A DNA stretch of 64,000 bases from Patescibacteria group bacterium (GTDB lineage: Bacteria > Patescibacteriota > Patescibacteriia > UBA9570). The notes beneath the pieces are model-generated. The model ran no database searches and was not told where the DNA came from. It worked only from the letters and a program-made list of their open reading frames with translations. The first letter of the stretch is position 1; each line of letters begins with the position of its first letter. The stretch lies in assembly GCA_024277435.1 (NCBI GenBank), contig JAJRVJ010000028.1, positions 97,300 to 161,299 on the forward strand. Reading direction: 5' to 3'. Positions 3,079 to 60,075 of this stretch are shown here, one piece after another. A program made the translations under genes and the position numbers.

Positions 3079-4062
3079 ATGGAAAAAGTATTACGCGCAA
3101 TTCAGCAGGGTGAAACCCTTACGCAACAACAAGCTGAAGCTGCAATGGACACAATGATGTCTGGCAAGGCAGATCCTATTCAAGCTGGTGCATTATTAAT
3201 GGCATTAGCAACTCGCGGAGAAACTGCCGATGAAGTAATTGGTATGTTGCGTAGTATGCGCAAGCATATGACCACCATTGATTTAGAAGTTCCGGTATTA
3301 GATACCTGCGGTACAGGAGGGGATGGCATGAATACATTTAACATTTCTACAGCTGTTGCCTTAGTATGCGCCGCTCTTGGTGTGGCCGTAGCTAAACATG
3401 GTAATCGCGCTGCTAGTTCTAAATGTGGTAGCGCAGATATTCTAGAAGCACTTACTATTCCTATTGAGCTGACTGGTGATGCTGCTAAAAAATATTTTTC
3501 TAATAATAATTTTGTGTTTCTTTATGCACGCAAATATCATGCAGCTATGAAACATTTAGCACCTATCCGCAAGGCATTAGGGGTTCGTACTATTATTAAT
3601 TTTCTTGGACCACTTTCTAATCCCGCTCAGGCTAAACATCAGCTTGTAGGTGTATCTGATCCACTAAAAGCTTAAATTATTGGCCAGGCATTAATCGAGT
3701 TAGGTTCGCAACATGCCATTATTGTGTATAGTGATGATGGTTTAGATGAGGCGAGTATTGCGGCACCTACCTCGGTGCTAGAAATGACACCAACCGATAC
3801 GAAGCGCTATCGTATTGAGCCGCGCACAATGTATACCATTGAAGAGATTCGAGGCGGTGATCCAGAGCATAATGCTGAAATAATGAAGCAATTAGCTGAC
3901 GGCAAAGGTTCGGCTGCATTAATTGAAGTGGTGGCAATGAACGCTGGTCTAGCGTTGCTGGCTGCTGACGCTGTATCTTCTTATGAAGAAGGTAAGCTTC
4001 AGGCAGAACAATTATTACGATCACATAAGTTATCTGATATTCTCAATAAAATGCAACAATAA
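3079..4062 (+). pseudogene. trpD: Anthranilate phosphoribosyltransferase (TrpD), interrupted by an in-frame TAA at 3673-3675. Both halves are in the same frame and conserved.
   Basis: N-terminal part carries the GTGGDG motif. ...VGVSDPLKA, then TAA, then IIGQALIELGSQHAIIVYSDDGLDEAS... The stop aligns to the conserved Leu of the VLPIAE region. Confidence 0.75.
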
Positions 4063-13680: not shown

Positions 13681-14379
13681 ATGAACATTGGAATTATTGG
13701 AGTAGGGCGGTTTGGCTCTCTATTAGAAAAACATCTTTCAACAGATAATACAGTAGTTACATTCGATAAAGGTGATCCAGGTGAAGAGTTAATATTATGT
13801 GATCTTGTTATTTTTGCAGTGCCGAATAAAATATTGCAGGATATTGTATATGAGTATCAGCCATTTATCTCTAGTGATGCCACGGTAATGGACGTGGGAT
13901 CAGTAAAAGTGTTGCCGTGTGAGATCTTGCAAGAAGAATTTTCTGATAGAGCATTAGGAACGCATCCGTTATTTGGGCCAGATAGTGCAGGTGAATCTTG
14001 GGACGGGCATAAAATGGTGTTTTGTAAACTAGATATCTCGGATGAACGATATACGGCTGTAAAGAAAGTATTTACTGCTAGAGGAATTACAGCAATTGAA
14101 AGTACGCCAGAGGAGCACGATAAAATGATGGCTAAAACTCAAGCTCTCGTACATTTTATGGGACGGGCGTTATCTGGTATTGAAGAGCAGGAAATTTCTA
14201 CGCCGGATTATGGGAATTTATTGAAGATGATGGAGAAGGTAACAAATGATACCTGGGAGTTATTTTTTGACATACAGAATTTAAATCCGTATGCTGAAGC
14301 TGAACGAAAACAACTGATTACAAAATTACAATCATTAGAAGAACAAATACACGATGACCAACAACAACGCACAACGTAA
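13681..14379 (+). CDS. tyrA: prephenate dehydrogenase
   Basis: 232 aa with N-terminal NAD fold IGIIGVGRFGS. TyrA-like core. Confidence 0.8.
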   Translation: MNIGIIGVGRFGSLLEKHLSTDNTVVTFDKGDPGEELILCDLVIFAVPNKILQDIVYEYQPFISSDATVMDVGSVKVLPCEILQEEFSDRALGTHPLFGPDSAGESWDGHKMVFCKLDISDERYTAVKKVFTARGITAIESTPEEHDKMMAKTQALVHFMGRALSGIEEQEISTPDYGNLLKMMEKVTNDTWELFFDIQNLNPYAEAERKQLITKLQSLEEQIHDDQQQRTT

Positions 14380-14635
14380 ATTAGAAGAGTTGCGAAAACA
14401 AATTGATGAGATAGATAGTGATATTGTGCAAAGTATTGCTAGACGGCTTGTAGTTGTAGAGGAGATCGGTGAAGTGAAAGCTGAATCTGGTTTAGCCGTA
14501 CAAGATGCTAATCGTGAAGCTAAGTTATATGTAAAATTAAATACGCTAGCTCATGAACATGGTGTGCCATTAGATCTCATCATGCATATCTACGATTACA
14601 TCATTAGTCAAGCGCGTGATCGCCAGCAGCAATAA
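14354..14635 (+). CDS. chorismate mutase (AroQ class, monofunctional)
   Basis: 93 aa. LRKQIDEIDSDIVQSIARRLVVVEEIGEVK is the typical AroQ helix pattern. Last gene of the operon. Confidence 0.8.
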   Translation: MTNNNAQRKLEELRKQIDEIDSDIVQSIARRLVVVEEIGEVKAESGLAVQDANREAKLYVKLNTLAHEHGVPLDLIMHIYDYIISQARDRQQQ

Positions 14636-14698: not shown

Positions 14699-15128
14699 GT
14701 TACTAAGTATTATGAATAGTAAAAAATCTTTTAACTTAATCCACAAGATTTGGAACACAACACTCCTCGTGAAGATGGTGTGTGTTTATGTTGTCACTAC
14801 AATTCGACGCACAAATTACGGGTTAAGTTCTATGAGCCATATATAGATTAAAAGATATTAAGGCAAATAACGAACGAAGCCCGCAAAAACAGTGGGATTT
14901 TTTATACGCCTAGACCAGTTTCTGAAACGTTGGAAATTACTCTAGCCGGATAAAACCGGTAAGTTAGCTCTTTACATGTGTATACCATCATTGTTATGCA
15001 ATGGCGATATAACATCAACGTATGGTCAATGAATGCATTGGCCTTATGGCAACGTGATCTTTGATCGTAACCATCTAACTTATATGTTCTTGGTCGCTCA
15101 ATGTATTTATAGTATATATGCATATTGA

Positions 15129-15206
15129 GCGGCTGGGAACCTTAAGCCACATGGAGTGGGCCTTCTTTGACAATGAAGGTGACGGGTTCGATTCCCCTCG
15201 GTCGCA
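15129..15206 (+). ncRNA. tRNA-like element of 78 nt: a 7-bp acceptor stem (two G-U pairs), a canonical T-arm GGGTTCGATTCCC, a discriminator A, and a non-canonical D/anticodon region. It is a degenerate tRNA, a tRNA 3' remnant, or a tRNA-like end of a longer ncRNA.
   Basis: gcggctg (15129-35) pairs with cggtcgc (15199-205). T-arm ACGGG-TTCGATT-CCCCT has one C-C mismatch. The best internal hairpin, ccttc/gaagg, has a 9-nt loop. An intrinsic terminator overlaps the 3' end. Confidence 0.3.
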
Positions 15207-15222
15207 CGAATCGTGCTTTTAT
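15204..15222 (+). terminator. intrinsic terminator (gcacg-aat-cgtgc followed by a T-run)
   Basis: 5-bp GC stem followed by TTTTAT. Confidence 0.55.
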
Positions 15223-15327
15223 AGTGTAGAGAAGAAATCTCCACTATGAAAAGCTTTGAGGGTGGGTACATTCCCACACAGATATTGACTTCGGTCACCA
15301 TCTGTGGAGCACAAGTATCACGTTGCC

Positions 15328-15383
15328 CCCTTCCCAGTGTGTATCTTACTTAATGTAAGTACTAGGTACACACTGTTCAAGGG
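15328..15383. repeat. 56-nt imperfect nested palindrome (ccctt/aaggg, ccagtgtgta/tacacactg, cttac/gtaag)
   Basis: Three concentric inverted-repeat pairs, visible by eye, in an AT-rich non-coding region. Confidence 0.5.
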
Positions 15384-15529
15384 ATTGTATTATCATTACA
15401 ACCATTATGAATTATTCAGGGAAACAACTTATTCTTATTGTGCTTAACCTCGTGATTAATATCACGCTGGGATCTTTATGGTTTAAAAAAGAAATGTAGA
15501 TTGATATTTTCTTCAATAACCCTAAAGAT

Positions 15530-15556
15530 CCCCGCGCGATAAACGTGGGGTTTTTT
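15530..15556 (+). terminator. intrinsic terminator (ccccgcg-cgataaa-cgtgggg followed by TTTTTT) at the left edge of GC-rich island A
   Basis: 7-bp stem including one G-U pair, followed by a T6 run. Confidence 0.6.
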
Positions 15557-15721
15557 CATTTAGGCTAATTCTCTGATCTCCCTCTCCTGAAAGGATGGGG
15601 GTCGGAGGAGGGGTCGATCAATGAATCGGTGGTGCTTATATGAGGCGCCAATAGGGTGCCTCAATAGGCATAAATCCACCAATTGTTCTTTACAGATGAT
15701 GAGTATGCAATACGATTCGAG

Positions 15722-15762
15722 GAAGCGCTGTATGGACTACACCGATGTCCATACAGCGCTTC
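15722..15762. promoter_or_regulatory. perfect 16-bp inverted repeat (GAAGCGCTGTATGGAC-N9-GTCCATACAGCGCTTC) upstream of the island A ORF; candidate operator or 5' leader structure
   Basis: The arms are exact reverse complements. Sits 53 nt upstream of ATG 15815 and is followed by direct repeats gcgcatc(t)gcgcatc. Confidence 0.5.
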
Positions 15763-15814
15763 CCGCGCATCTGCGCATCTTCATCTAACCCCGAAGACCC
15801 CTCAAGGAGGTCCT

Positions 15815-16213
15815 ATGTCGAGCAGCCTGCTCTCCAATCGTCCCGATTTCGCCATGCGCACTCGCGGTGGCCAGCGCCTGGCGTTCCACACCAGCGGTGG
15901 CGTCACCATGGCCTTCAGCCCCGCCACCAGTCAGCCCGTGCGCGCCCGCCTTGTCAGCGAGAAGGGTAACTCAAACGGTTGGCACCTAGTTGGTACTGCC
16001 GAGTTCGATGCGATGGCCACGCTCTACGGGCTGGTCAATGCCTTCGGCTCCTGGTGCCTGCGTGTCGTCCGCTTCGGCGTGGAGATGCTGGTGGACCTCA
16101 CTGCTCGTCACCTGGTGTGTGGTCGCTACGAAGGCGATGACGACTGGGTCAAGCTCGAGGCCGAGGGCTTCTGTGAGCTGGTGCGCGCGTACAACAACAT
16201 GTGCGCCGTCTGA
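15815..16213 (+). CDS. hypothetical protein (133 aa) in GC-rich island A
   Basis: ATG preceded by the strong SD AAGGAGG (7 nt upstream). About 65% GC with GC3-rich codons, unlike the host. A 12-bp GC hairpin follows the stop. Confidence 0.55.
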   Translation: MSSSLLSNRPDFAMRTRGGQRLAFHTSGGVTMAFSPATSQPVRARLVSEKGNSNGWHLVGTAEFDAMATLYGLVNAFGSWCLRVVRFGVEMLVDLTARHLVCGRYEGDDDWVKLEAEGFCELVRAYNNMCAV

Positions 16214-16230
16214 TGAGATGTTTTCGGGGA

Positions 16231-16266
16231 GAAGCGGTGGTGTGGTTCTAAGCCCACCACCGCTTC
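16231..16266 (+). terminator. GC-rich hairpin terminator (gaagcggtggtg...caccaccgcttc) after the island A ORF
   Basis: 12-bp perfect stem with no U-tract (high-GC-organism style). Confidence 0.5.
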
Positions 16267-16287
16267 GCAACCGCTACTGAAATGCTA

Positions 16288-16316
16288 TTGCAACACTTCA
16301 AAAATTTTCTTATAAT
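16288..16316 (+). promoter_or_regulatory. sigma70 promoter TTGCAA-17-TATAAT
   Basis: Near-consensus hexamers with 17-nt spacing, 40 nt upstream of ATG 16356. Confidence 0.55.
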
Positions 16317-16355: not shown

Positions 16356-18950
16356 ATGGATCACACATTTCTACAATTACAAAAACGTTTAGCAAAACAA
16401 CTCTGGATCGTTAAAGAACAAACCAATAAAGAGCGCACTCTCGTGTATATCGCAGGAATGTCGCTTGATCAAGAAGAGCTAGCCAAAGTGGCTGGTATTG
16501 CGTTTTATGAAGAGCGATTACTATATGTAATTGGTCTACTTCGTAATCCTGAAACAACGGTAGTCTTCGTTACCTCCACACAAATTGACCCAGTAATTTT
16601 AGAGTATTATTTCCAACTATTTGGACGTAATAAACAAGAACAGGCCAGCATGCGTAAGCGCTGGCATCATTTTTATATTGGAAATAGTCGCACTCATAAA
16701 ACTCTTACGCGAAAGGTATTGTCTTCCAAGCGGGTAACCAACCAGGTGTTATCAAAAATTGTGAGCAAAGAACATGCAGTGTTACGGTGTTTTAATGTGT
16801 CTGAAGATGAACAGGCTTTAGCTGTTAAATTAGGAATTCCATTATTTGCTCCTAATCCCGACCTATTACATTGGGGTTCAAAATCTGGTTCCCGTAAAAT
16901 ATTTAAACAGGCTAAGCTAAAACCAGCGTATGGAATTGAAGATATTCATTCGATGGAAGAGCTTATTGCAGCCATTCGAAAAATTAAGAAGCAGCGTAAT
17001 CCAGAGCAAGTTGTTATTAAATTTAATTACAGTTTTTCTGGCGTTGGTAACGCAAATTTACTACTAAAGAAGTTTCCAAAATCAAATAAAGCCGCTGAAC
17101 AATATCTTAAAAAGAATATTGTGCCGTGTGAGCCGGGCATGACAAAAGTACAGTATCTAAAAAAATGTTTCGAAATGGGCGGCATTGTTGAAGAATGGCT
17201 AGTTGGAGATAAAGTATATTCACCAAGCGTACAAGTACTCATTGAACCAAATCAAGAAGTACGTATTTTATCTACACATGAACAATTATTAGATCCCGAA
17301 ACAAAGCAGGTGTATTTAGGTGCTCGTTTTCCAGCTCGTAAAAAATTACGACCATACATTGTAGATCAGGCTAAGGCGGTTGGTAATGCCTTAGCAAAAG
17401 AAGGTGTTATCGGACCACTTGGTATAGATTTTTTGGTAGTGAAAAAACGCGGAAAAACATATACGCATCCGGTTGAAATTAATTTACGCAAAGGTGGTAC
17501 CACGCATCCATTTCAAATTGCCCAAATGCTTACCGAGGGAACTACTCGTCCGATTGGAGCAATGCTTGGTAAAAATAAGAAGAAAGTATATTACTACTCA
17601 TTCGATAATATTAAGTCTTCGCAGTATACGGGGCTTACACCGAAACAGTTAATAGCTATCGTGCGAGAATCGGGACTGGAATTTGATTCCGAAGGAAATA
17701 TGGGGGTAGCATTACATTTAATGGGTGCGCTCCGTAAATATGGCAAATTCGGTGCAGTATGTATTGCCCGCTCACCAAAGGCAGCTGAACAACTATTTGT
17801 GTTATTGAAAAAAGTAGTTGATGCAAAAGTGGAGGAATTGGATATTGCCATAGAGGCTGAAGAGCTTGAAAATACCGTGAATCGTAAACGTTTAGTGGAT
17901 ACATTTGTTACGTTAGCAAGAATTCCCAGCCCTTCAGGTGAAGAAGATCAATTGCGCATTTGGTTACGTGAGGAGTTGGTGCGTTTAGGGTGTACAGTGC
18001 GGGTAGATAAGGCTGGAAATATTATTGCTAAAAAAGCTGGCGTGGGTAAAGTGCCAATATTACTTTCATCACATATGGATACAGTGCAGCCATGCCATAA
18101 TGTAAAACCAGTTGTGCGTGGAGATGTGATTATGACCGACGGCACAACTATTTTAGGCGCCGATAATAAAGCCGGAATAGTATATATTATTGAAGCCTTG
18201 CGTATACTGAGAGAAAATAAATTTTCACACATACCATTAGAAATTGTACTATCCACGTACGAAGAGCAATTTTCTCAGGGAGTGAAAGCTTTAGACATGT
18301 CAAAAATTAAATCGCCATTTGGATTAGTAATTGATGGTGCAGATGTAGGTGAGGTAGATTATACAGCACCATATATTGCAGTAATTGATGTAACTATAAC
18401 TGGCAAGGCGGCTCATTCGGGTGTAGAGCCAGAGAATGGTATTAGTGCAATTCAAATTGCTGCGCAGGCCATTAATCGTATGAAGCTTGGAAGAATCTAT
18501 CCAGATACTACCGCGAACATTGGATTGATTACGGGCGGAACTAATCGTAATGCTATCCCTGGAGAAGTAAGGCTTATTGGTGAAGTGCGTAGTCTTTCAA
18601 AACGGAAGCTTGAAGAGCAACTTGAACGCATGCACAAAGCATTGGAGGATGCCGCAGAAAAATATGGTGGTTTGTTGGCAATAGATAGTAGAGTTGCAGT
18701 GAGTGGTTATACATTTTCAAAAACCGATAAAGATATTAAACACATTATGGCTGTAATGAAGCGGGTTGGTATTCAGCCACAATTACGACAAGCTGGCGGA
18801 GGGTCTGATGCGAATGTATTTGTAATGCGCGGTGTAAAAACTATCGATGTAGGTACGGGAGTACGTAAGCCCCATACTGTTGAAGAGCATATCAATATCA
18901 ACGATATGGTGCAGATGGCTGAATTCGTTTTAGAGATGATCAAGGTATAA
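16356..18950 (+). CDS. Fusion protein (864 aa): an N-terminal ATP-grasp-like ligase domain (about 500 aa, tentative) joined to a C-terminal M20-family metallopeptidase (PepT/ArgE/DapE-like).
   Basis: C-terminal M20 motifs: SSHMDTV, GADNKAG, TYEEQ, ITGKAAHSG, GGGSDANV. N-terminal half has an ATP-grasp-like Gly-rich segment, KFNYSFSGVGNANLL, but no confident family assignment. Confidence 0.6.
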   Translation: MDHTFLQLQKRLAKQLWIVKEQTNKERTLVYIAGMSLDQEELAKVAGIAFYEERLLYVIGLLRNPETTVVFVTSTQIDPVILEYYFQLFGRNKQEQASMRKRWHHFYIGNSRTHKTLTRKVLSSKRVTNQVLSKIVSKEHAVLRCFNVSEDEQALAVKLGIPLFAPNPDLLHWGSKSGSRKIFKQAKLKPAYGIEDIHSMEELIAAIRKIKKQRNPEQVVIKFNYSFSGVGNANLLLKKFPKSNKAAEQYLKKNIVPCEPGMTKVQYLKKCFEMGGIVEEWLVGDKVYSPSVQVLIEPNQEVRILSTHEQLLDPETKQVYLGARFPARKKLRPYIVDQAKAVGNALAKEGVIGPLGIDFLVVKKRGKTYTHPVEINLRKGGTTHPFQIAQMLTEGTTRPIGAMLGKNKKKVYYYSFDNIKSSQYTGLTPKQLIAIVRESGLEFDSEGNMGVALHLMGALRKYGKFGAVCIARSPKAAEQLFVLLKKVVDAKVEELDIAIEAEELENTVNRKRLVDTFVTLARIPSPSGEEDQLRIWLREELVRLGCTVRVDKAGNIIAKKAGVGKVPILLSSHMDTVQPCHNVKPVVRGDVIMTDGTTILGADNKAGIVYIIEALRILRENKFSHIPLEIVLSTYEEQFSQGVKALDMSKIKSPFGLVIDGADVGEVDYTAPYIAVIDVTITGKAAHSGVEPENGISAIQIAAQAINRMKLGRIYPDTTANIGLITGGTNRNAIPGEVRLIGEVRSLSKRKLEEQLERMHKALEDAAEKYGGLLAIDSRVAVSGYTFSKTDKDIKHIMAVMKRVGIQPQLRQAGGGSDANVFVMRGVKTIDVGTGVRKPHTVEEHININDMVQMAEFVLEMIKV

Positions 18951-19019
18951 TAATATAGTGCGCTAAACTCAGCAGAAAAATCGTCAAGCAATTCAGTGTA
19001 TAAAATGCGCATAATTATA

Positions 19020-19048
19020 TTGAAGAGCAGCATATAATTTGTTACAAT
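19020..19048 (+). promoter_or_regulatory. promoter-like TTGAAG-17-TACAAT, upstream of a 250-nt leader that ends in the palindromic terminator
   Basis: Hexamer match with 17-nt spacer; the leader 19049-19268 is non-coding. Confidence 0.3.
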
Positions 19049-19230
19049 ATAGCTGTCCCGTTCTTTCACTTAAACCACTTTCGACAATCTTTTCTCTAAG
19101 GGAGTTTTACATCGCTGTGCATCATGGAGTTCTCTGCGACCATTCAGGAACTTGGAAAGTTCTAAGCTGTTCAGTTGCGAACACCCACGTAAAATAAGAG
19201 GGGAGTTGGTTTAAGATATCAGGGCGGGCT

Positions 19231-19268
19231 AAAAAGTAGATGCATGCCATGGCATGCATCTACTTTTT
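19231..19268. terminator. 38-bp perfect palindrome AAAAAGTAGATGCATGCCATGGCATGCATCTACTTTTT (bidirectional intrinsic terminator / repeat)
   Basis: Exact reverse-complement symmetry with an A-run and a T-run flanking. A related core, GCATGTCATGGCATGC, recurs at 23404-23423. Confidence 0.6.
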
Positions 19269-19303
19269 CTGGGCAGTTGTTGTTTATAAGATAAAAATAG
19301 TAT

Positions 19304-20587
19304 ATGAATTTCAAAGAATTACGTACAAAAGAGTTCGCTCGATTAGTGGATCAGCAGCATGTGTATGTAGATTATACTGGTGGTGGGCAATGTCCGGCTT
19401 CTGTGATGCAGCAATATAGTGATTTATTACAGACTACGGCTTTTGGTAATCCACACTCTTATAATCCAACATCATTGCATACTACGGAACTCATTGAAGA
19501 AGTGCGTGGAATGATATTAGATTTTTATAATGCCAAAGATGATTACACACTTATTTTTACACAGAATGCTTCAGGTGCTTTAAAAATTCTTGGAGAATCA
19601 TATCCATGGGGAGAAAATAGCCTATATATTATAGCGCGTGATAATCACAATTCCGTATTAGGCATTCGTGAATATGCAAAAAAAGCCGGAGCAACGGTGC
19701 AGTATTGGGAACTTGATGATGAATTGCGTTTACAAAATAATCTTGGAGAGTTAATTGGTCAGCATCCTGGCAAAGATGTTGTTGTGGCATATCCTGCGCA
19801 ATCAAACTTTAGCGGCGTAATGCATTCATTAGAATATGTTGAACGAGCGCATCAGCTTGGCGCTACAGTATTTTTAGATACTGCCGCATTTGTTCCAACG
19901 CATACGTTGGACTTACAAGCTATTCAGCCAGATGCAGCCTGTGTATCTTTTTACAAAGTTCTTGGATTTCCAACTGGTATTGGCGCGCTACTTATTCGCA
20001 ACGATCTATTGGAGAAACTTGAGAAAGCATGGTTTGCTGGCGGCACTGTGCGTGGAGTAAGTTTGGAAGATCATGTATTAGAACGCGGCCATGAAAGTTT
20101 TGAAGATGGTACGGTAAATTATGCTCTTATTCCAGGGTTAAAATATGTATATGAATTTATTGAAGAGCTTGGTGGTGTTGAAAAAATTGAAGAGCATGTA
20201 ACAGCGCTTACCGCAAAAGCATTAGAAGAATTACAGCAGATAGAAAACGTGGTTGTGTATGGTCCTAAAACAATGGATAACCATGGTGCAACTGTTGCAT
20301 TTAATATTCTAGATAAAGCCGGAGCTCCTATTCATTATGGCGAGATTGAGAAGTTAGCGTATGATAAAAAGATTTCATTACGTGGAGGATGTTTCTGTAA
20401 TCCTGGAGCAGGTTCAAAATCGTTTGGTCTCGATTCAGCGTCGATGCAAGGATTATTAGGAAAATTAAAAACGCATTCTAAAGAAGATGCGGCCGTACCT
20501 GGGGCTATTCGTGTTTCATTTGGAATTGCTAATTCAGAAGAAGATGTAAACGCAGTAATAGATTTTGTAAAATCAGTTGTGCAGTAA
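19304..20587 (+). CDS. PLP-dependent aminotransferase class V fold enzyme, NifS/MOCOS-N-terminal-like (cysteine desulfurase / Moco sulfurase-like)
   Basis: 427 aa. PLP-Lys context SFYKVLGFPTGIGAL. LRGGCFCNPGAG motif typical of the MOCOS NifS-like domain. Confidence 0.65.
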   Translation: MNFKELRTKEFARLVDQQHVYVDYTGGGQCPASVMQQYSDLLQTTAFGNPHSYNPTSLHTTELIEEVRGMILDFYNAKDDYTLIFTQNASGALKILGESYPWGENSLYIIARDNHNSVLGIREYAKKAGATVQYWELDDELRLQNNLGELIGQHPGKDVVVAYPAQSNFSGVMHSLEYVERAHQLGATVFLDTAAFVPTHTLDLQAIQPDAACVSFYKVLGFPTGIGALLIRNDLLEKLEKAWFAGGTVRGVSLEDHVLERGHESFEDGTVNYALIPGLKYVYEFIEELGGVEKIEEHVTALTAKALEELQQIENVVVYGPKTMDNHGATVAFNILDKAGAPIHYGEIEKLAYDKKISLRGGCFCNPGAGSKSFGLDSASMQGLLGKLKTHSKEDAAVPGAIRVSFGIANSEEDVNAVIDFVKSVVQ

Positions 20588-20754: not shown

Positions 20755-21168
20755 TCAGATGATCTTGTGCTGTCTCCTGACGGAGGCAGCGACGACGTGG
20801 TCCAGTGCTTCCGCGCAGTTGCGCCAGGCGGTGCCGCTCACCACCACGATCTGGCCCTTGTTGGCGGAAGCAACGATCACGTCGGCGTCGCGCATCATTC
20901 CATCGACGTATAGGCTGTGGAATCCTACGGGCAGGAGGCCGGAGTCGATCAGGACCCGGATCCTCTCCTGACTACCGGACTTGCGCGGCAGGTTGGTCTG
21001 GACGGTGACACCCGGACCCAGGAAGTAGAGCTTCCCGTCGCTGGAGGTGTCAGCAGTGATGATCTTCTGACCGCGGCGGACGGTCAGCACCGATGCCCCT
21101 TCGGACACCAGGTGCTTCGCCGCAGCCTCGGAGAAGCCCAGTTGTTGCAGGATCTGTTCTGCTGTCAT
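20755..21168 (-). CDS. stand-alone cyclic-nucleotide-binding (CAP/CRP-type cNMP-binding) domain protein, 137 aa, with no effector or HTH domain
   Basis: Pattern VRRGQKIITADTSSDGKLYFLGPGVTVQT ... GLLPVGFHSLYVDGMMRDADVIVAS resembles the beta-roll plus phosphate-binding cassette (G-E-L...R-A). GC-rich. SD GAGGGAG upstream on the minus strand. Confidence 0.45.
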   Translation of the reverse strand: MTAEQILQQLGFSEAAAKHLVSEGASVLTVRRGQKIITADTSSDGKLYFLGPGVTVQTNLPRKSGSQERIRVLIDSGLLPVGFHSLYVDGMMRDADVIVASANKGQIVVVSGTAWRNCAEALDHVVAASVRRQHKII

Positions 21169-21382
21169 AGTTCTCCCTCGGATTGTTCCATGACAATCCT
21201 ATTCGGTGTGTACATATTTAATAGCATTATGAGTATTTTGTACATATCTATTGAAGTACTACTGAATATATTTTACTTGACAAAATACCCCAATAATTGG
21301 AAAATGATGTGCTCGCAGGACTAGTTTCCTGCTTGCGTTCCTTGAAAAATGGCACATGCCACTAACGTCATGAGGTCTCCAC
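21169..21382. promoter_or_regulatory. AT-rich divergent promoter region inside GC-rich island B, containing TTGACA-like hexamers and the palindrome TGGCACATGCCA (21350-21361)
   Basis: A local GC drop to below 35% between two divergently oriented GC-rich genes. The 12-bp palindrome sits 22 nt upstream of the cyclase ATG. Confidence 0.45.
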
Positions 21383-23332
21383 ATGTCTGATACCAATCTG
21401 CGTGGGGCCCTCCGTGATGTGGGCTCTGCAAACGCCGTTGCTACGGTTGTGGCGGTTGAGGCGGAAGAACTGCAGCGGAAGTTGCCTAAAGGCACGCTGG
21501 TCGAGCGTCTCTGGCACCAGGTTTTCATGCCGGAAGGCTGGAAGACCAAGGATCTACTGAAGCGCACCATGCCCCTGCTCACCTGGGTCGCCGTGGAGCG
21601 GAACCTGTTCCGCATTTTCGGTAATCCCCAGGCTGCTGCGAAGGCGGTGGCTGCCAAGGCCGCTACGGCGGACTTCGGTGGCTTGGAGTTGGCGGACTGG
21701 TTCCGTTGGCTTCTGCGGCTGTTCGTGCCGCCCAGTTTCGTGTTCGCCTCAATCATCCCGCGGCTGATGCCCAAGTTCAACACCCTGAAGCGAGTCACTC
21801 TCGTGGAAGAAGATGACAACCACGTCATCTATCGGGTGCAGTACATGAACAAGAGCGGTAAGCAGACGCACGATCCTCACGAGGATATGGGTTCCCGTGT
21901 CTGGTTCGAGACGGCCATGACGGCTGGCGCGGCCAAGTACTGGTTCCCAGACGCTGCGCGGGTAGTACACCACGTGTTGGAGTTGGACCTCGTCCAGTAC
22001 CTCCAGCACTTCACTGAGTTCATGCCTGGCACCACCTTCTACCGGTCCGGTGGTACGCTGCGTATGCGCGCTACCGATGCGCGGCCCGACGTCATGGATA
22101 CGGTAGTGGCCACTCAAGTTCAGCTTCGGCCGGATGATGACGGCTTCTACACCGTCGTTGCCACTCAGGAAGACCTGAACATGGGCTTCGACACTCGCCT
22201 TGGCTGGCGGGTGGAGCGTGATATTGCGGCAGTGGACGCCATGGGTGAAACCTGGCAGCCCGTCGCTAGTGGAACGATCTTCTGCGCTGGAGCCAAGTGC
22301 TCGCTCACCGAGTACAACTGGCGTCCGCAGACAATCGCTCTGCGCGCGGTGTTCCGGTTCGCGGTGTTCTGCATCAAGCTGCTCGGTGGAAGCTTCACTG
22401 GCGCCGCTAGGTTGGCCGAAGCCAAGACGAACATGGCTGAGCTGGCTGCCGAGCGTGATAACGCTCTGGGTGACGCCGAGCGTGAACGTGCGCTCCGCCA
22501 GGAGATGGACAAAGATCACTTCCCGACGGAACAGATCGCTACGGCGATGCGTGAGCAGGCGTTCAGCCCGCGTCAGCTCTTCGGAGCGTTGCTGTTCTTC
22601 GATCTCGGCGATAGCACGGCTGCTAACGAGCGTCTTCCGAACTACGCGGATTTGCTCCAGCAGTTCATGGATGCCATCGATGCCGTTATGGTGCGCTACC
22701 GTGAGGGAGCGCGTGAAGACGGTGTCGTAGGATTCACGGTCTCGGAGCCGGGCGATGCTCGCCTCATGATCTTCTCGCGGCGCTGGAATGAGCACCACCA
22801 GACTATGGACGAGGCCGTTGCCCGCGATTAGCTCGCGGTGGCCATTGCGGTGGCCACGGAGATCTTCGCGATCTTCAACCAGGTGTTCAATGTTCCTGGC
22901 GGCCCCAGCTGCGTGCGCATCGGCATTCACTACGGCGAGTTCAAGCTCGATCGCCGTGGTGCCAGCAAGAGCCGTGCTCAGTGTTACGGCGATACCACGA
23001 ACACCGTCGCTCGTTTGGAGGCGGCCGGTAAGTTGCCTGGCGTAGCGGCCGGTGACCTGCGCACCGTGGTGCTGATGGCGAGCGTGGCCGAACTGGTGGC
23101 AGACAGTCACGAGTTCGTGCCGGTCGGCACACAGACCTTCAAGGGTGTCTCCGGACACCATGAGGTCGTGCGGCTGCTGCTGCCTGGTCAGCAGGGCGTT
23201 CGTCGCCTCAAGGACTTCACCGAGGAGATCAAAACCTTGCCGGACGTCGCAATCCAGCAGTTGGGGCCAGCGGACGCCAACCGTGAACTCCTCGACGAAC
23301 TCCTCGATGAGTTCGTCAGCGAAGCAGAGTAG
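21383..23332 (+). pseudogene. Sensor class III nucleotidyl (adenylyl/guanylyl) cyclase: an N-terminal domain of about 390 aa of unknown type, a coiled-coil linker and a cyclase catalytic domain. It is interrupted by an in-frame TAG at 22829-22831.
   Basis: Cyclase motifs FFDLGDST, EPGDARLMIF, VRIGIHYGEF and YGDTTNTVARLE are split across ORFs 21383-22831 and 22838-23332, both in the same frame. About 62% GC. Confidence 0.6.
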
Positions 23333-54880: not shown

Positions 54881-54953
54881 GGGACGTTAGCTCAGTTGGT
54901 AGAGCAGCAGCCTTTTAAGCTGATGGTCACTGGTTCAAATCCAGTACGTCCCA
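54881..54953 (+). tRNA. tRNA-Lys (anticodon TTT), CCA not encoded
   Basis: Cloverleaf with acceptor gggacgt/acgtccc, D-arm gctc-agttggta-gagc, anticodon loop cTTTTaa, T-arm actgg-ttcaaat-ccagt, and discriminator A. Confidence 0.85.
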
Positions 54954-58392: not shown

Positions 58393-58716
58393 GTGCCTAC
58401 ACCGGAACGTCCGGCGGTGCTGATTCATTCAGCTACCGCAGAAATATACGAGTTCCTGCCAACTCGTGATCGGCAGCGGCGACAAGACTCTCTCGCTCAG
58501 TTACAACTACTCAAGCAGCTGCTGCAGCGCCTCACAAGCAACGACATTACTCTGTCGCGTGCAGGGGAGTTGATTGTGAGACCCAACTTGGCGAGGCGCC
58601 GGCTGAGGGAGAATCCTCATAATCTGACGCACTACTGGGCAGCACGCTATAGTCGCTGCACTAACTGGGCTATGCTGCAATATGTTTTGCGCCTGTGCGC
58701 ACTATGCCCGGCATAG
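58393..58716 (+). CDS. hypothetical protein (107 aa), first ORF of GC-rich island C
   Basis: SD AGGAGC followed by GTG. GC-rich codon usage. Preceded by TTGACA-like promoter 58345-58375. Overlaps the next ORF by 22 nt in another frame. Confidence 0.4.
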   Translation: MPTPERPAVLIHSATAEIYEFLPTRDRQRRQDSLAQLQLLKQLLQRLTSNDITLSRAGELIVRPNLARRRLRENPHNLTHYWAARYSRCTNWAMLQYVLRLCALCPA

Positions 58717-58901
58717 ATCATTTGGTTGGCGAGTTGAATCGGGCTGGTCATCCGTTGCGTGAGCAAGTGCGACGCGCTCGGTTTGCTACTGATGTGCGCA
58801 TGCTACTCGCTGCGACGCGTCGCCTTACGGAGGCGCACCACCCGGCTGGAGCTGGTAGGCTTGTGGCTTGGCTCACTGGAGCTAAAGTGGAGGTGCCGTA
58901 G
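58695..58901 (+). CDS. hypothetical protein (68 aa), overlapping partner of the preceding ORF (possible two-gene module or frameshifted single gene)
   Basis: GC-rich ORF. Followed by hairpin cttggag-tag-ctccaag (58902-58918). Confidence 0.35.
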   Translation: MRTMPGIDHLVGELNRAGHPLREQVRRARFATDVRMLLAATRRLTEAHHPAGAGRLVAWLTGAKVEVP

Positions 58902-58977
58902 CTTGGAGTAGCTCCAAGAATGTTCAAGCGCCTTCTGAGTTCATCCCAGAACTTAGAAGGCAATAGGACAATACTCA

Positions 58978-59076
58978 TTGACTTTTTATTAAAATATAGT
59001 ACACTCGTGGCGCCTGTTAATTAGGCGTTCTTTACAATTAGGAGGAATTATCGTGAAGTTGAACGTATACTCGTAG
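58978..59076 (+). promoter_or_regulatory. promoter TTGACT-16-TACACT, then imperfect IR ggcgcct/aggcgtt, strong SD AGGAGG and a 7-codon mini-ORF (GTG-KLNVYS-stop, 59053-59076); candidate leader-peptide control region for the 176-aa ORF
   Basis: Hexamers at 58978-83 and 59000-05. SD 59040-45. GTG 59053. TAG 59074-76. Confidence 0.35.
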
Positions 59077-59194
59077 GTCACGGGTGCGGCAAATAGTGTG
59101 GTTTATACATGCGCATTACTTGCTACATCCGTGGCCACAAAAAAGAGTGGAGACGCTCTGATCTGTGTATCCCCCAAAAAAAGGTAGGTAAGTC

Positions 59195-59725
59195 ATGAGC
59201 ACCCCGCTCAGCATCATTCTCGGCAACTCTGTTGTCGGCCCCATCGTTCCCGTCCGCGTCGTCGAGACCGTGGATCCGCGGGTCTCGATTCACTTCAAGG
59301 ACGGCATCGTCCTCAACCTCGTCGGCCTCACCGCCGAGGAGCGCGATGGCTTCGACGAGACCGGGATCAACTGGCACGACGACATCGAGGACAGCGGAGC
59401 GCTGCTCCACCGCGACATGGGCGTCCTGTTCGACCGCAGCGGGATGACCAACCTGCGGCAGGGCGGTGAGCCCCACCCCGACCCCCGTGTTCGCCAGCAG
59501 GACTGGCAGAACACCGTGAGTTCGGTTACCGTCACCACGGGCGCCGGCCCCTACGGGCTGCTGGTGGCCCTCTGCGCCGCCGGCTGGGGACCCGCCATCA
59601 GCTCCCGGATCGACGTGGTCGGCCACATGCGGATGGCCGTGGGCAGCCGGGACTCCGCAGAGCTGGCCCGCTACGTGGGCGGGGCCTTCCGCTCCAGCGG
59701 ACGGAAGTACGTCCGGGTCGCCTAG
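59195..59725 (+). CDS. hypothetical protein (176 aa), GC-rich island C
   Basis: ATG with upstream AGGTAGG. About 65% GC. Followed by GC hairpin 59764-59802. Confidence 0.5.
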   Translation: MSTPLSIILGNSVVGPIVPVRVVETVDPRVSIHFKDGIVLNLVGLTAEERDGFDETGINWHDDIEDSGALLHRDMGVLFDRSGMTNLRQGGEPHPDPRVRQQDWQNTVSSVTVTTGAGPYGLLVALCAAGWGPAISSRIDVVGHMRMAVGSRDSAELARYVGGAFRSSGRKYVRVA

Positions 59726-59856
59726 AGCGCGCTGAAGAAGCGCAGGATCTACGGTTCAACTTCACGCCCCCTTCAATCGTGTATGCGAGGGAAGGGGGAA
59801 CGTGATCTTTCTAGATTAGATAAATAGTCTACAGAGAATACGTAAAATTTGCAGAG

Positions 59857-59884
59857 TTGACATATTCATAATTTTCCCTAAATA
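59857..59884 (+). promoter_or_regulatory. sigma70 promoter TTGACA-16-TAAATA upstream of the 60-aa ORF
   Basis: Consensus -35 and A/T-rich -10. Confidence 0.4.
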
Positions 59885-59892
59885 GTCGCGTT

Positions 59893-60075
59893 GTGCATTA
59901 CAACATAGTGAAGCGTCCCGCTGGCCTTCCGATAAAACTTCTCATGCAGCGGGTCTTCGGGCCGCTGGCGAAGGGAGATCCCCTCAAGCGAGACGTCGAG
60001 AAGAGGCGCCTAGGTAAGGTCACCCGCAACATGACCTCCGCCCTCAACACCAGTCGAGGTCTCCAGGAACTGTAA
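59893..60075 (+). CDS. small basic hypothetical protein (60 aa)
   Basis: GTG-start ORF, moderately GC-rich, between island C and asnS. Confidence 0.3.
   Translation: MHYNIVKRPAGLPIKLLMQRVFGPLAKGDPLKRDVEKRRLGKVTRNMTSALNTSRGLQEL

Follow-up and report, generated by a model that had tools for sequence, protein, structure and literature searches.

Long, perfect hairpins near the 5' end of an mRNA, ahead of the Shine-Dalgarno (SD) sequence, characterise both the 5' stem-loop stabilisers of messages, such as the ompA leader, and RNase III leader hairpins. At the level of whole genes, phage morons and the PeSL cassettes of T4-type phages are units of promoter, stem-loop, orphan open reading frame (ORF) and hairpin set between conserved genes, and the hyperplastic regions of T4-type phages are shuffled at conserved regulatory motifs (PMC2839356, PMC4122927). 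Translation offers a further precedent: Bacteroidia genes mostly lack an SD and have A-rich upstream regions, with a small minority carrying strong SDs. The anti-SD is sequestered there, and in Flavobacterium the strong SDs make these few genes responsive to bS21, and so to the state of the ribosome (PMC7797042, PMC9976891). Here we examine island A, a small GC-rich island with a single-gene layout of this kind, in a 64,000-nucleotide stretch of a Patescibacteria group bacterium (assembly GCA_024277435.1, contig JAJRVJ010000028.1; the whole stretch is called the window below). Our literature searches on GC-rich islands in such genomes returned nothing relevant. The interpretation that we tentatively favour, at a little under an even chance, is that island A is a self-contained cassette whose single gene encodes an accessory protein restricted to this lineage, and that it lies in a hypervariable slot and belongs to an actively maintained class of GC-rich, mostly SD-led genes.

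The window is a bacterial chromosome segment of 40.6% GC that carries trp/aro operons, a ribosomal-protein cluster, aminoacyl-tRNA synthetases and dnaB. Island A forms the last third of a 1.7-kb gap between a chorismate mutase gene (14354-14635) and a gene for an ATP-grasp(PGM1-like)/M20 peptidase of 864 aa (16356-18950). A first-pass annotation, made from the letters alone, had GC content jumping from about 35% to about 65% at 15560 and falling back at 16285. The fine-scale profile contradicts this: positions 15550-15750 are at 43-50% GC, and values above 55%, reaching 75%, are confined to approximately 15721-16270. The parts of the slot and its borders are as follows.

15460..15557, + strand: conserved long hairpin, its 3' arm overlapping the canonical intrinsic terminator, which has its stem at 15530-15550 and then a T-run; forms the left border and lies outside the GC-rich insert
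15580..15619, + strand: pyrimidine/purine hairpin CTCCCTCTCC..GGAGGAGGGG, then GTCGATC; intermediate GC
15621..15788, + strand: candidate upstream ORF of 55 aa, running across the palindrome; GGAGGAGG lies 7-9 nt before its ATG; GC at the three codon positions (GC1/2/3) 0.39/0.41/0.61
15689..15716, + strand: sigma-70-like promoter candidate, TTTACA-16-TACGAT, a consensus match alone (9/12)
15721..15763, + strand: perfect inverted repeat with 17-bp arms and a 9-nt loop, read as the leader stem-loop of the cassette mRNA
15766..15781, + strand: GCGCATCT twice in tandem, a small GCGC/GCGC hairpin
15804..15811, + strand: SD AAGGAGGT; the predicted fold pairs part of it with an upstream GACC
15815..16213, + strand: ORF A, 132 aa, an orphan
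16231..16266, + strand: GC-rich 3' hairpin without a U-tract, read as a 3' stabiliser or non-canonical terminator
16288..16316, + strand: promoter-like TTGCAA-17-TATAAT of the ATP-grasp/M20 gene; right border of the slot

Relatives were found through the ATP-grasp/M20 flank gene, which led to seven related loci in independent assemblies; scanning metagenomes with its protein yielded none. Identities below refer to the ATP-grasp/M20 gene.

L001: 66% identity; metagenome-assembled genome (MAG) JAUYKW01
L002: 68% identity; Logan assembly
L003: 56% identity; Logan assembly
L004 / L005: 49% identity; L004 is GCA_018822435.1, 'Patescibacteria group bacterium', and L005 is a Logan assembly
L006: 62% identity; Logan assembly
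L007: GCA_040960315.1; ATP-grasp/M20 gene not compared; its B2 protein (see below) is 75% identical to that of L002
L008: 68% identity; Logan assembly

The inverted repeat that opens the GC-rich block is perfect, with arms at 15721-15737 and 15747-15763 around a 9-nt loop. It had been annotated as a 16-bp palindrome; perfection and loop length stand, and each arm is 17 bp. The tandem gcgcatc repeats reported behind it are indeed there, as two copies of GCGCATCT at 15766-15781. The 121-nt leader has a predicted folding energy of -53.5 kcal/mol (z = -6.2), and none of 200 shuffled versions was as stable. Leader hairpins stand at the same position before an SD-led ORF in L002, L007, L004 and L006, with z between -4.0 and -6.6 and with unrelated sequences. 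Since hairpin structure and position recur and sequence does not, a function of the hairpin as nucleic acid is favoured over a sequence-specific operator. Our best reading is that the palindrome would form the leader stem-loop of the cassette mRNA, and the candidate promoter at 15689-15716 would place the transcript start at the first bases of the palindrome. Of the two possibilities first proposed, operator or leader structure, only the latter finds support. A search for the palindrome elsewhere, as a repressor site, gave no second copy in the 64-kb window with up to 3 mismatches allowed. A repressor operator is not supported, on three grounds: the palindrome is unique in 64 kb, the hairpin sequences of the relatives are unrelated, and no regulator gene is adjacent. 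Homology of the window leader with the L002 and L007 leaders, which have a GGAAGC..GCTTCC stem base in common with it, was rejected by a shuffle test.

The 3' hairpin is real as well. It spans 36 nt (16231-16266), has about 16 bp where 12 bp had been reported, and folds at -38.4 kcal/mol (z = -4.2). The sequence behind it, GCAACCGC, contains no U-tract, and the hairpin therefore does not qualify as a canonical terminator. The description of the island as bracketed by hairpin terminators thus holds for the upstream side, where the hairpin at 15530-15557 is canonical, and fails for the 3' side. Between the two hairpins, the SD is present at 15804-15811, at a spacing to the ATG of 3-4 nt where 7 nt had been stated.

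ORF A was correctly placed in position and strand, and its product is 132 aa plus stop, not 133 aa. Its GC1/2/3 values of 0.63/0.49/0.80 (codon-position periodicity, chi-square p = 1e-6) give the GC pattern of a gene from a genome of about 64% GC. The antisense ORF in register with it has the mirror-image values (0.75/0.45/0.63), and its GC1 is implausibly high. SD and ATG both agree with the frame of ORF A, and on the strength of this agreement and the periodicity the ORF looks coding. Of its codons, 40% are rare in the host, versus 9% in a neighbouring host gene. The ORF is 64% GC, and its predicted protein has no isoleucine, 1.5% lysine, an isoelectric point (pI) of 6.8 and a grand average of hydropathy (GRAVY) of -0.01; reading by eye alone, we saw no apparent signal peptide or membrane segment.

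The earlier statement that the protein lacks recognisable motifs is borne out by searches of Pfam, PADLOC, PHROGs, NCBIfam and PDB, none of which gave a match; PADLOC, which covers anti-phage defence, returned 0 matches. No homologue was found by a word-seeded search of 5.8 billion clustered proteins or by exhaustive phmmer against 1.84 billion representative proteins. A tblastn search of phages and plasmids produced only noise at E = 0.7 in Rhizobium plasmids, and back-translated scans of metagenome and viral contigs gave no match. Exact look-ups in a 15-billion-protein collection, for every frame and start, did not recover ORF A; that collection does contain other proteins of the 188.7-kb NCBI contig. 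The profile search and structure prediction that the annotation had proposed thus gave no profile match and, from AlphaFold run without an alignment, a mean predicted local distance difference test (pLDDT) score of 41.6. We also considered that the ORFs might be precursors of ribosomally synthesised and post-translationally modified peptides (RiPPs) for the adjacent PGM1-like ATP-grasp ligase. This is unlikely, as the class also occurs at unrelated loci (islands B and C, and the rpsG-fusA interval of L004) and has no common core motif.

These results bear on whether the island holds a functional protein gene at all. It might instead be a GC-rich structured non-coding RNA or a decaying pseudogene, with the ORF a by-product of stop-poor sequence, and we consider this quite improbable. 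In its favour are several overlapping ORFs in other frames of island A, a chance of about 3% for an ORF of this length, the lack of both a homologue and a confident fold, the absence from the public protein collection, and the presence of decayed ORFs of this kind in L007. The strong three-base GC periodicity, in the same frame as the ATG and the full SD, speaks against it, as does the lack of an Rfam match: at gathering score Rfam matched nothing except tRNA, and at E <= 10 over the gap its matches were at chance level, a weak tRNA-like / tmRNA-3'-end likeness at 15143-15219 being not significant. The absence from the collection has its own explanation in that gene callers mis-call the class. 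In L002 (7947-9830) the public gene calls in the GC-rich cassettes are antisense (172, 116 and 135 aa). Genes of the GC-rich class are systematically mis-annotated or missed by gene callers.

That class can be recognised across the window, where it comprises seven GC-rich ORFs in three islands, A and the following two.

20755..23332: island B, a divergent pair; B1, 20755-21168 (-), 136 aa, and B2, 21383-23332 (+), with a class III cyclase domain
58393..60075, + strand: island C, four GC-rich ORFs (58393-58716, 58695-58901, 59195-59725 and 59893-60075)

GC3 ranges from 0.55 to 0.91 in the class, and from 0.18 to 0.36 in host genes (n=37), whose GC1/2/3 values are 0.54/0.36/0.28. SDs of 5 nt or more stand before 15 of 21 GC-rich ORFs and before 3 of 65 host genes of the relatives (Fisher p = 1.6e-9); with 4 nt or more, the count for the GC-rich ORFs rises to 19 of 21. 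In the window, essentially none of 36 host genes has an SD of 5 nt or more. Host genes of the window and of L001-L006 have A/T-rich start regions, and their promoter-like sites look sigma-70-like. The lineage thus appears, from its start regions, to initiate translation without an SD, and the pattern expected of an SD regulon, host genes without SDs and a minority with strong ones, is what we found. Neither a 16S rRNA gene nor rpsU was identified in the window or in the loci of the relatives. Inside islands B and C, AT-rich promoter-like spacers separate the GC-rich ORFs.

Side observations on these two islands are as follows. B1 has a weak RAMA-like match; B2 has a C-terminal class III nucleotidyl cyclase domain with a weak PycC-like match in PADLOC, and its reading frame, intact in L002, L003, L007 and L008 (637-654 aa), holds an in-frame TAG at 22829-22831 in the window. 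Island C sits between a P-type ATPase gene and the gene for asparaginyl-tRNA synthetase (AsnRS). Its 176-aa ORF (59195-59725; 69% GC, GC3 0.91) is the sole tested island ORF present in the public protein collection (P0127). In L004, the most distant relative, a moderately GC-rich island (56% GC, GC3 0.66) lies between rpsG and fusA at 18724-19458, with a 244-aa ORF by our scan and public calls of 135 and 139 aa; this position shows that the gene class is not confined to the surroundings of the ATP-grasp gene.

In all relatives, GC-rich islands immediately precede the ATP-grasp/M20 gene, even in L004, which has different upstream genes. The slot itself contains GC-rich ORFs in L001, L002, L003, L004/L005 and L006, a decayed one in L007 and none in L008. 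Those ORFs are GC-rich with GC3 > GC1 > GC2 and belong to many unrelated families. A Cys-rich 'LPCGC...HPDGKVWHW.CGK' family occurs in L002, L007 and L008 and as a tandem pair in L001, and one L003 slot ORF is an ordinary class IV aminotransferase with a GC3 of 0.84. ORF A matches no slot ORF of any relative, and the families common to relatives exclude it. In L008 the empty slot consists of the terminator T-run, a promoter within a few bases and an ATG about 34 nt downstream. L002 and L007 have leaders and trailers that are about 90% identical (L007 6640-7040 versus L002 9330-10000), and the 127-aa slot ORF of L002 corresponds in L007 to a shortened, AT-enriched remnant without SD or ATG. The empty slot of L008, the decay in L007 and the varied fillings together indicate that the slot gains, keeps and loses ORFs while the flanking hairpins persist. 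The site reads as a hypervariable intergenic slot that extends from a conserved terminator to the promoter of the ATP-grasp/M20 gene.

The left border is the terminator of the upstream unit, AAAGAACCCTGC..GCAGGGTTTTTT (15530-15557), of canonical intrinsic type and kept in six genomes. Its 5' arm (AAAGAACCC) is also able to pair with a conserved upstream GGGTTCTTT, which would give two mutually exclusive, attenuator-like hairpins; this pair was seen in the window (15460-15557) and in its counterparts in L001, L002, L006, L007 and L008. RNAalifold predicted the terminator hairpin as the only structure of this region. At the right border, a TTGnnn / TATACT pair similar to that of the window is discernible by eye before the ATP-grasp/M20 gene of the relatives. 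The hairpin at 15580-15619 bears a borderline, non-significant resemblance to L001 9532-9547 (60/1000 shuffles score equally high), and the 55-aa upstream ORF is not conserved in L001 and remains a candidate only.

The recurrence of the locus also bears on whether island A is GC-rich DNA of another organism joined into an AT-rich contig by mis-assembly. The abrupt composition switch and the source, a metagenome-assembled genome, could suggest such a chimeric join, a possibility that the first-pass annotation had raised. It is very unlikely, given that independent assemblies of seven relatives, from different samples, have a similar island at the same locus. Furthermore, both junctions lie in host-like sequence with the conserved terminator and promoter, and island B is syntenic in five genomes.

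Whether the composition marks a recent import can be addressed with island B. B1 and B2 occupy syntenic positions in the window and in L002, L007 and L008, as does B2 in L003, and identities across genomes run from 46% to 85% for B1 and from 26% to 75% for B2. Only six B2 family members turned up among 5.8 billion proteins, and all five with contigs that were read map to the syntenic site in this lineage. Between island B orthologues, 49-65% of four-fold sites differ, which is near saturation, and GC at these sites is 0.67-0.82 in both partners; adjacent host genes that are equally diverged (65-72% of four-fold sites differ) have a GC of 0.29-0.43 there. Because near-saturated four-fold sites are still GC-rich in island B, its composition has been maintained and is not just the trace of a recent transfer. 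Two compositional equilibria have existed side by side since the species diverged, and amelioration of a recent import is no explanation.

For island A itself, recent horizontal acquisition stays a serious rival, because ORF A has no orthologue in any relative and maintenance is carried over to it by class membership. By this account, which we consider possible but unlikely, a promoter-ORF-hairpin unit arrived from an unsampled GC-rich, SD-using donor (a bacterium, plasmid or phage), came to lie between the terminator and the promoter, and has not yet ameliorated. A GC3 of 0.80 versus 0.28 in the host, the rare codons, the presence of an SD in a genome otherwise devoid of them and a 3' hairpin lacking a U-tract would all follow, and the slot, empty in L008 and otherwise filled in other relatives, with an ordinary aminotransferase of high GC3 in L003, fits as well. 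Against it, the 1.84 billion representatives, phages, plasmids, viral contigs and metagenome contigs yielded no homologue; nor did we find an integrase, transposase, tRNA target, attC or above-chance direct repeats. The class also includes vertically inherited, lineage-only families that are GC-rich at saturated synonymous sites, and the promoter spacers within the islands are AT-rich and host-like. The earlier view of an acquired cassette of foreign composition is therefore upheld as to the compact unit, the composition and the SD; 'acquired' is unproven, with no donor, homologue, mobility gene or att/attC site found.

Direct searches for mobility functions were negative. Scanned with a regular expression on both strands, the three island regions contain 0 RYYYAAC/GTTRRRY core pairs of attC type (50-140 nt apart), and the 36-nt 3' hairpin of island A has no such cores. 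Pfam scans of the less obvious ORFs of the window gave only housekeeping families and no IntI, the remaining window ORFs were assigned by synteny to aro/trp, ribosomal and biosynthetic genes, and neither intI nor attI was found in 64 kb. The 64-kb window holds no tyrosine or HUH recombinase and no transposase. No island ORF has a PHROG match, and the flanking genes encode chorismate mutase and the ATP-grasp/M20 enzyme. Repeats at the ends of island A that might mark an insertion sequence (IS) or miniature inverted-repeat transposable element (MITE) are short and at chance level. The only tRNA in the window, at 54881, is 39 kb away and has no accompanying integrase, so a tRNA-targeted island is not indicated. 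A 12-nt direct repeat at 15623/16231 was considered as an att-like duplication and rejected, since such repeats are expected by chance in 1.2 kb.

Repeats of another kind surround cassettes further upstream in the relatives, and an ORF-less element precedes island A in the window.

L001 7002-8481: repeat-flanked upstream cassettes
L002 7769-9143: repeat-flanked upstream cassettes
L007 4832-6470: repeat-flanked upstream cassettes
L008 343-870: repeat-flanked upstream cassettes
15040..15335, + strand: element X, without an ORF, flanked by the inverted repeat GGCAACGTGA / TCACGTTGCC

The cassettes carry flanking inverted repeats of 10-15 nt that differ between cassettes and are always complementary; examples are the pairs TGGGTAACGTAATA/TATTACGTTACCCA, GGACAACGGT/ACCGTTGTCC and GGGTAACGTATACGA/TCGTATACGTTACCC. 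After each cassette comes CCACCTC(T)C, which we take to resemble the 3' tail of 16S rRNA, and then an imperfect palindrome of 70-90 nt. In L007, other GC stems can take the place of the apex of these palindromes (GTAGAGACGC..GCGTCTCTAC in L002, GTAGATACGCG.. in L001). Inspection by eye showed no target-site duplication at the neighbouring cassettes. In island C, the hairpin at 59763-59805 joins both halves of the M/M' motif (TTCACG-CCCCCTTC .. GGAAGGGGGAACGTGA). Element X has a 32-nt core, GGTGACGGGTTnnAnTCCCCTCGrTCGCACGA, in common with L006 (360-700), including a T-arm-like stem-loop; since the differences between the window and L006 fall mostly at every third base, the core may represent a very short ORF or else a small RNA that is conserved.

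It is conceivable that the hairpins act as DNA recombination sites, in the manner of attC or IS200/IS605 ends, for a recombinase encoded elsewhere, so that cassettes are exchanged as units. The hairpin-bounded ORFs, the different ORFs found in one slot, the complementary repeats and long palindromes of the upstream cassettes, the tandem paralogous cassettes, and the GAAGCG..CGCTTC common to the base of the 5' and 3' hairpins of island A are all compatible with such exchange. Nevertheless, we hold it to be improbable: no attC core pair occurs in the islands and no tyrosine or HUH recombinase in the 64 kb, island A lacks the M'/M inverted repeats of the cassettes, its 12-nt direct repeat is within chance expectation, and the L007 ORF decayed in place, which is not clean excision.

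Returning to the single-gene cassette that we favour, its expression can be pictured as follows. Transcription would start at or just before the palindrome, which may then fold as a 17-bp leader stem-loop that insulates and stabilises the mRNA or serves as a processing site for a double-strand RNase. A strong SD would be required if the GC-rich, structured 5' region is unable to use the A/U-rich, SD-independent initiation of the host. The 3' hairpin may close and protect a monocistronic transcript, or again offer a double-strand RNase site. The GC-richness of the class could be kept by selection on mRNA or codons, or by biased conversion, and an ORF that loses its function would presumably decay AT-ward and then be deleted, as in L007.

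Several observations weigh against this interpretation. The SD-to-ATG spacing is short (3-4 nt), and the putative promoter of island A is a 9/12 consensus match. The leader of L001 has no significant fold (z = -0.6), and the sequence of the window leader is not significantly like those of the relatives, so the equivalence of the leaders is positional and structural only. An ATG-initiated ORF of at least 132 codons arose in 143 of 5000 island shuffles (2.9%, p about 0.03), making length alone a weak argument; AlphaFold gave no confident fold; and ORF A has no orthologue among the relatives. Finally, the maintenance of GC was shown for island B and is only extrapolated to island A.

Alone, island A is an orphan gene; its interest lies in its membership of a maintained, GC-rich, SD-led and mis-annotated class that has fixed slots within the SD-less, AT-rich genome of a little-sampled lineage. 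Should the class prove real and maintained, it would show two regimes of composition and translation coexisting across speciation a few hundred bases apart, which is hard to fit to a picture of transfer followed by amelioration. It would then be a test case for what sustains GC at bacterial synonymous sites, be it biased gene conversion, repeated replacement or selection acting on mRNA structure, and for how SD-independent ribosomes handle SD-led messages. Standard gene callers miss the class or pick the wrong strand, leaving it under-represented in protein databases. A broader proposal, which we regard as rather doubtful, is that one chromosome holds two genetic 'dialects', an AT-rich SD-independent core and a maintained compartment of GC-rich, SD-led, hairpin-insulated, lineage-only genes in fixed intergenic slots, island A among them. 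If so, the compartment could be a translationally separate regulon, perhaps read only when anti-SD is available, or alternatively reflect unusually stable mRNAs or expression in a GC-rich partner organism, and its content would change as cassettes are gained and decay in place.

Elsewhere in the window, the product of a trpD-like ORF at 3079-3675 has just 198 aa and matches profile positions 3-125 of the 253 of Glycos_transf_3, roughly half of that domain; a 300-nt gap comes after the ORF. This arrangement could reflect a frameshift, a split gene or an insertion.

Compared with described systems, the islands resemble integron cassettes and clusters of attC sites lacking integron-integrases (CALIN arrays) in their small, mostly orphan and mostly one-orientation ORFs, each with its own ribosome-binding site, in the imperfect palindromes that bound them, and in their concentration at a single intergenic hot spot whose content is species-specific and includes tandem paralogues. 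They differ in that attC cores, intI and attI are lacking in 64 kb, a hairpin stands before the ORF as well as after it, AT-rich promoter-like spacers lie between cassettes, and the islands are uniformly GC-rich with a composition maintained over speciation. Island A has the same unit layout between conserved genes as phage morons and PeSL cassettes; its context, however, is a bacterial chromosome with aro/trp operons, ribosomal proteins, aminoacyl-tRNA synthetases and no phage gene, and, unlike PeSL cassettes, its leader has no significant sequence motif in common with those of the relatives. Relative to ompA-type stabilisers, the hairpin is unusually long and perfect (17 bp), and the transcript start is only predicted. 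With classical acquired islets they share an unusual GC content and codon usage, a place between genes and variable presence among relatives, whereas a donor and mobility genes are lacking and the conserved members of the class hold a four-fold GC of 0.67-0.82 at near-saturated divergence, the opposite of amelioration. The genes of this lineage are like those of Bacteroidia in mostly lacking SDs, with a minority that has strong ones. Unlike in Bacteroidia, the SD-led set consists not of rpsU or prfB but of GC-rich orphan genes.

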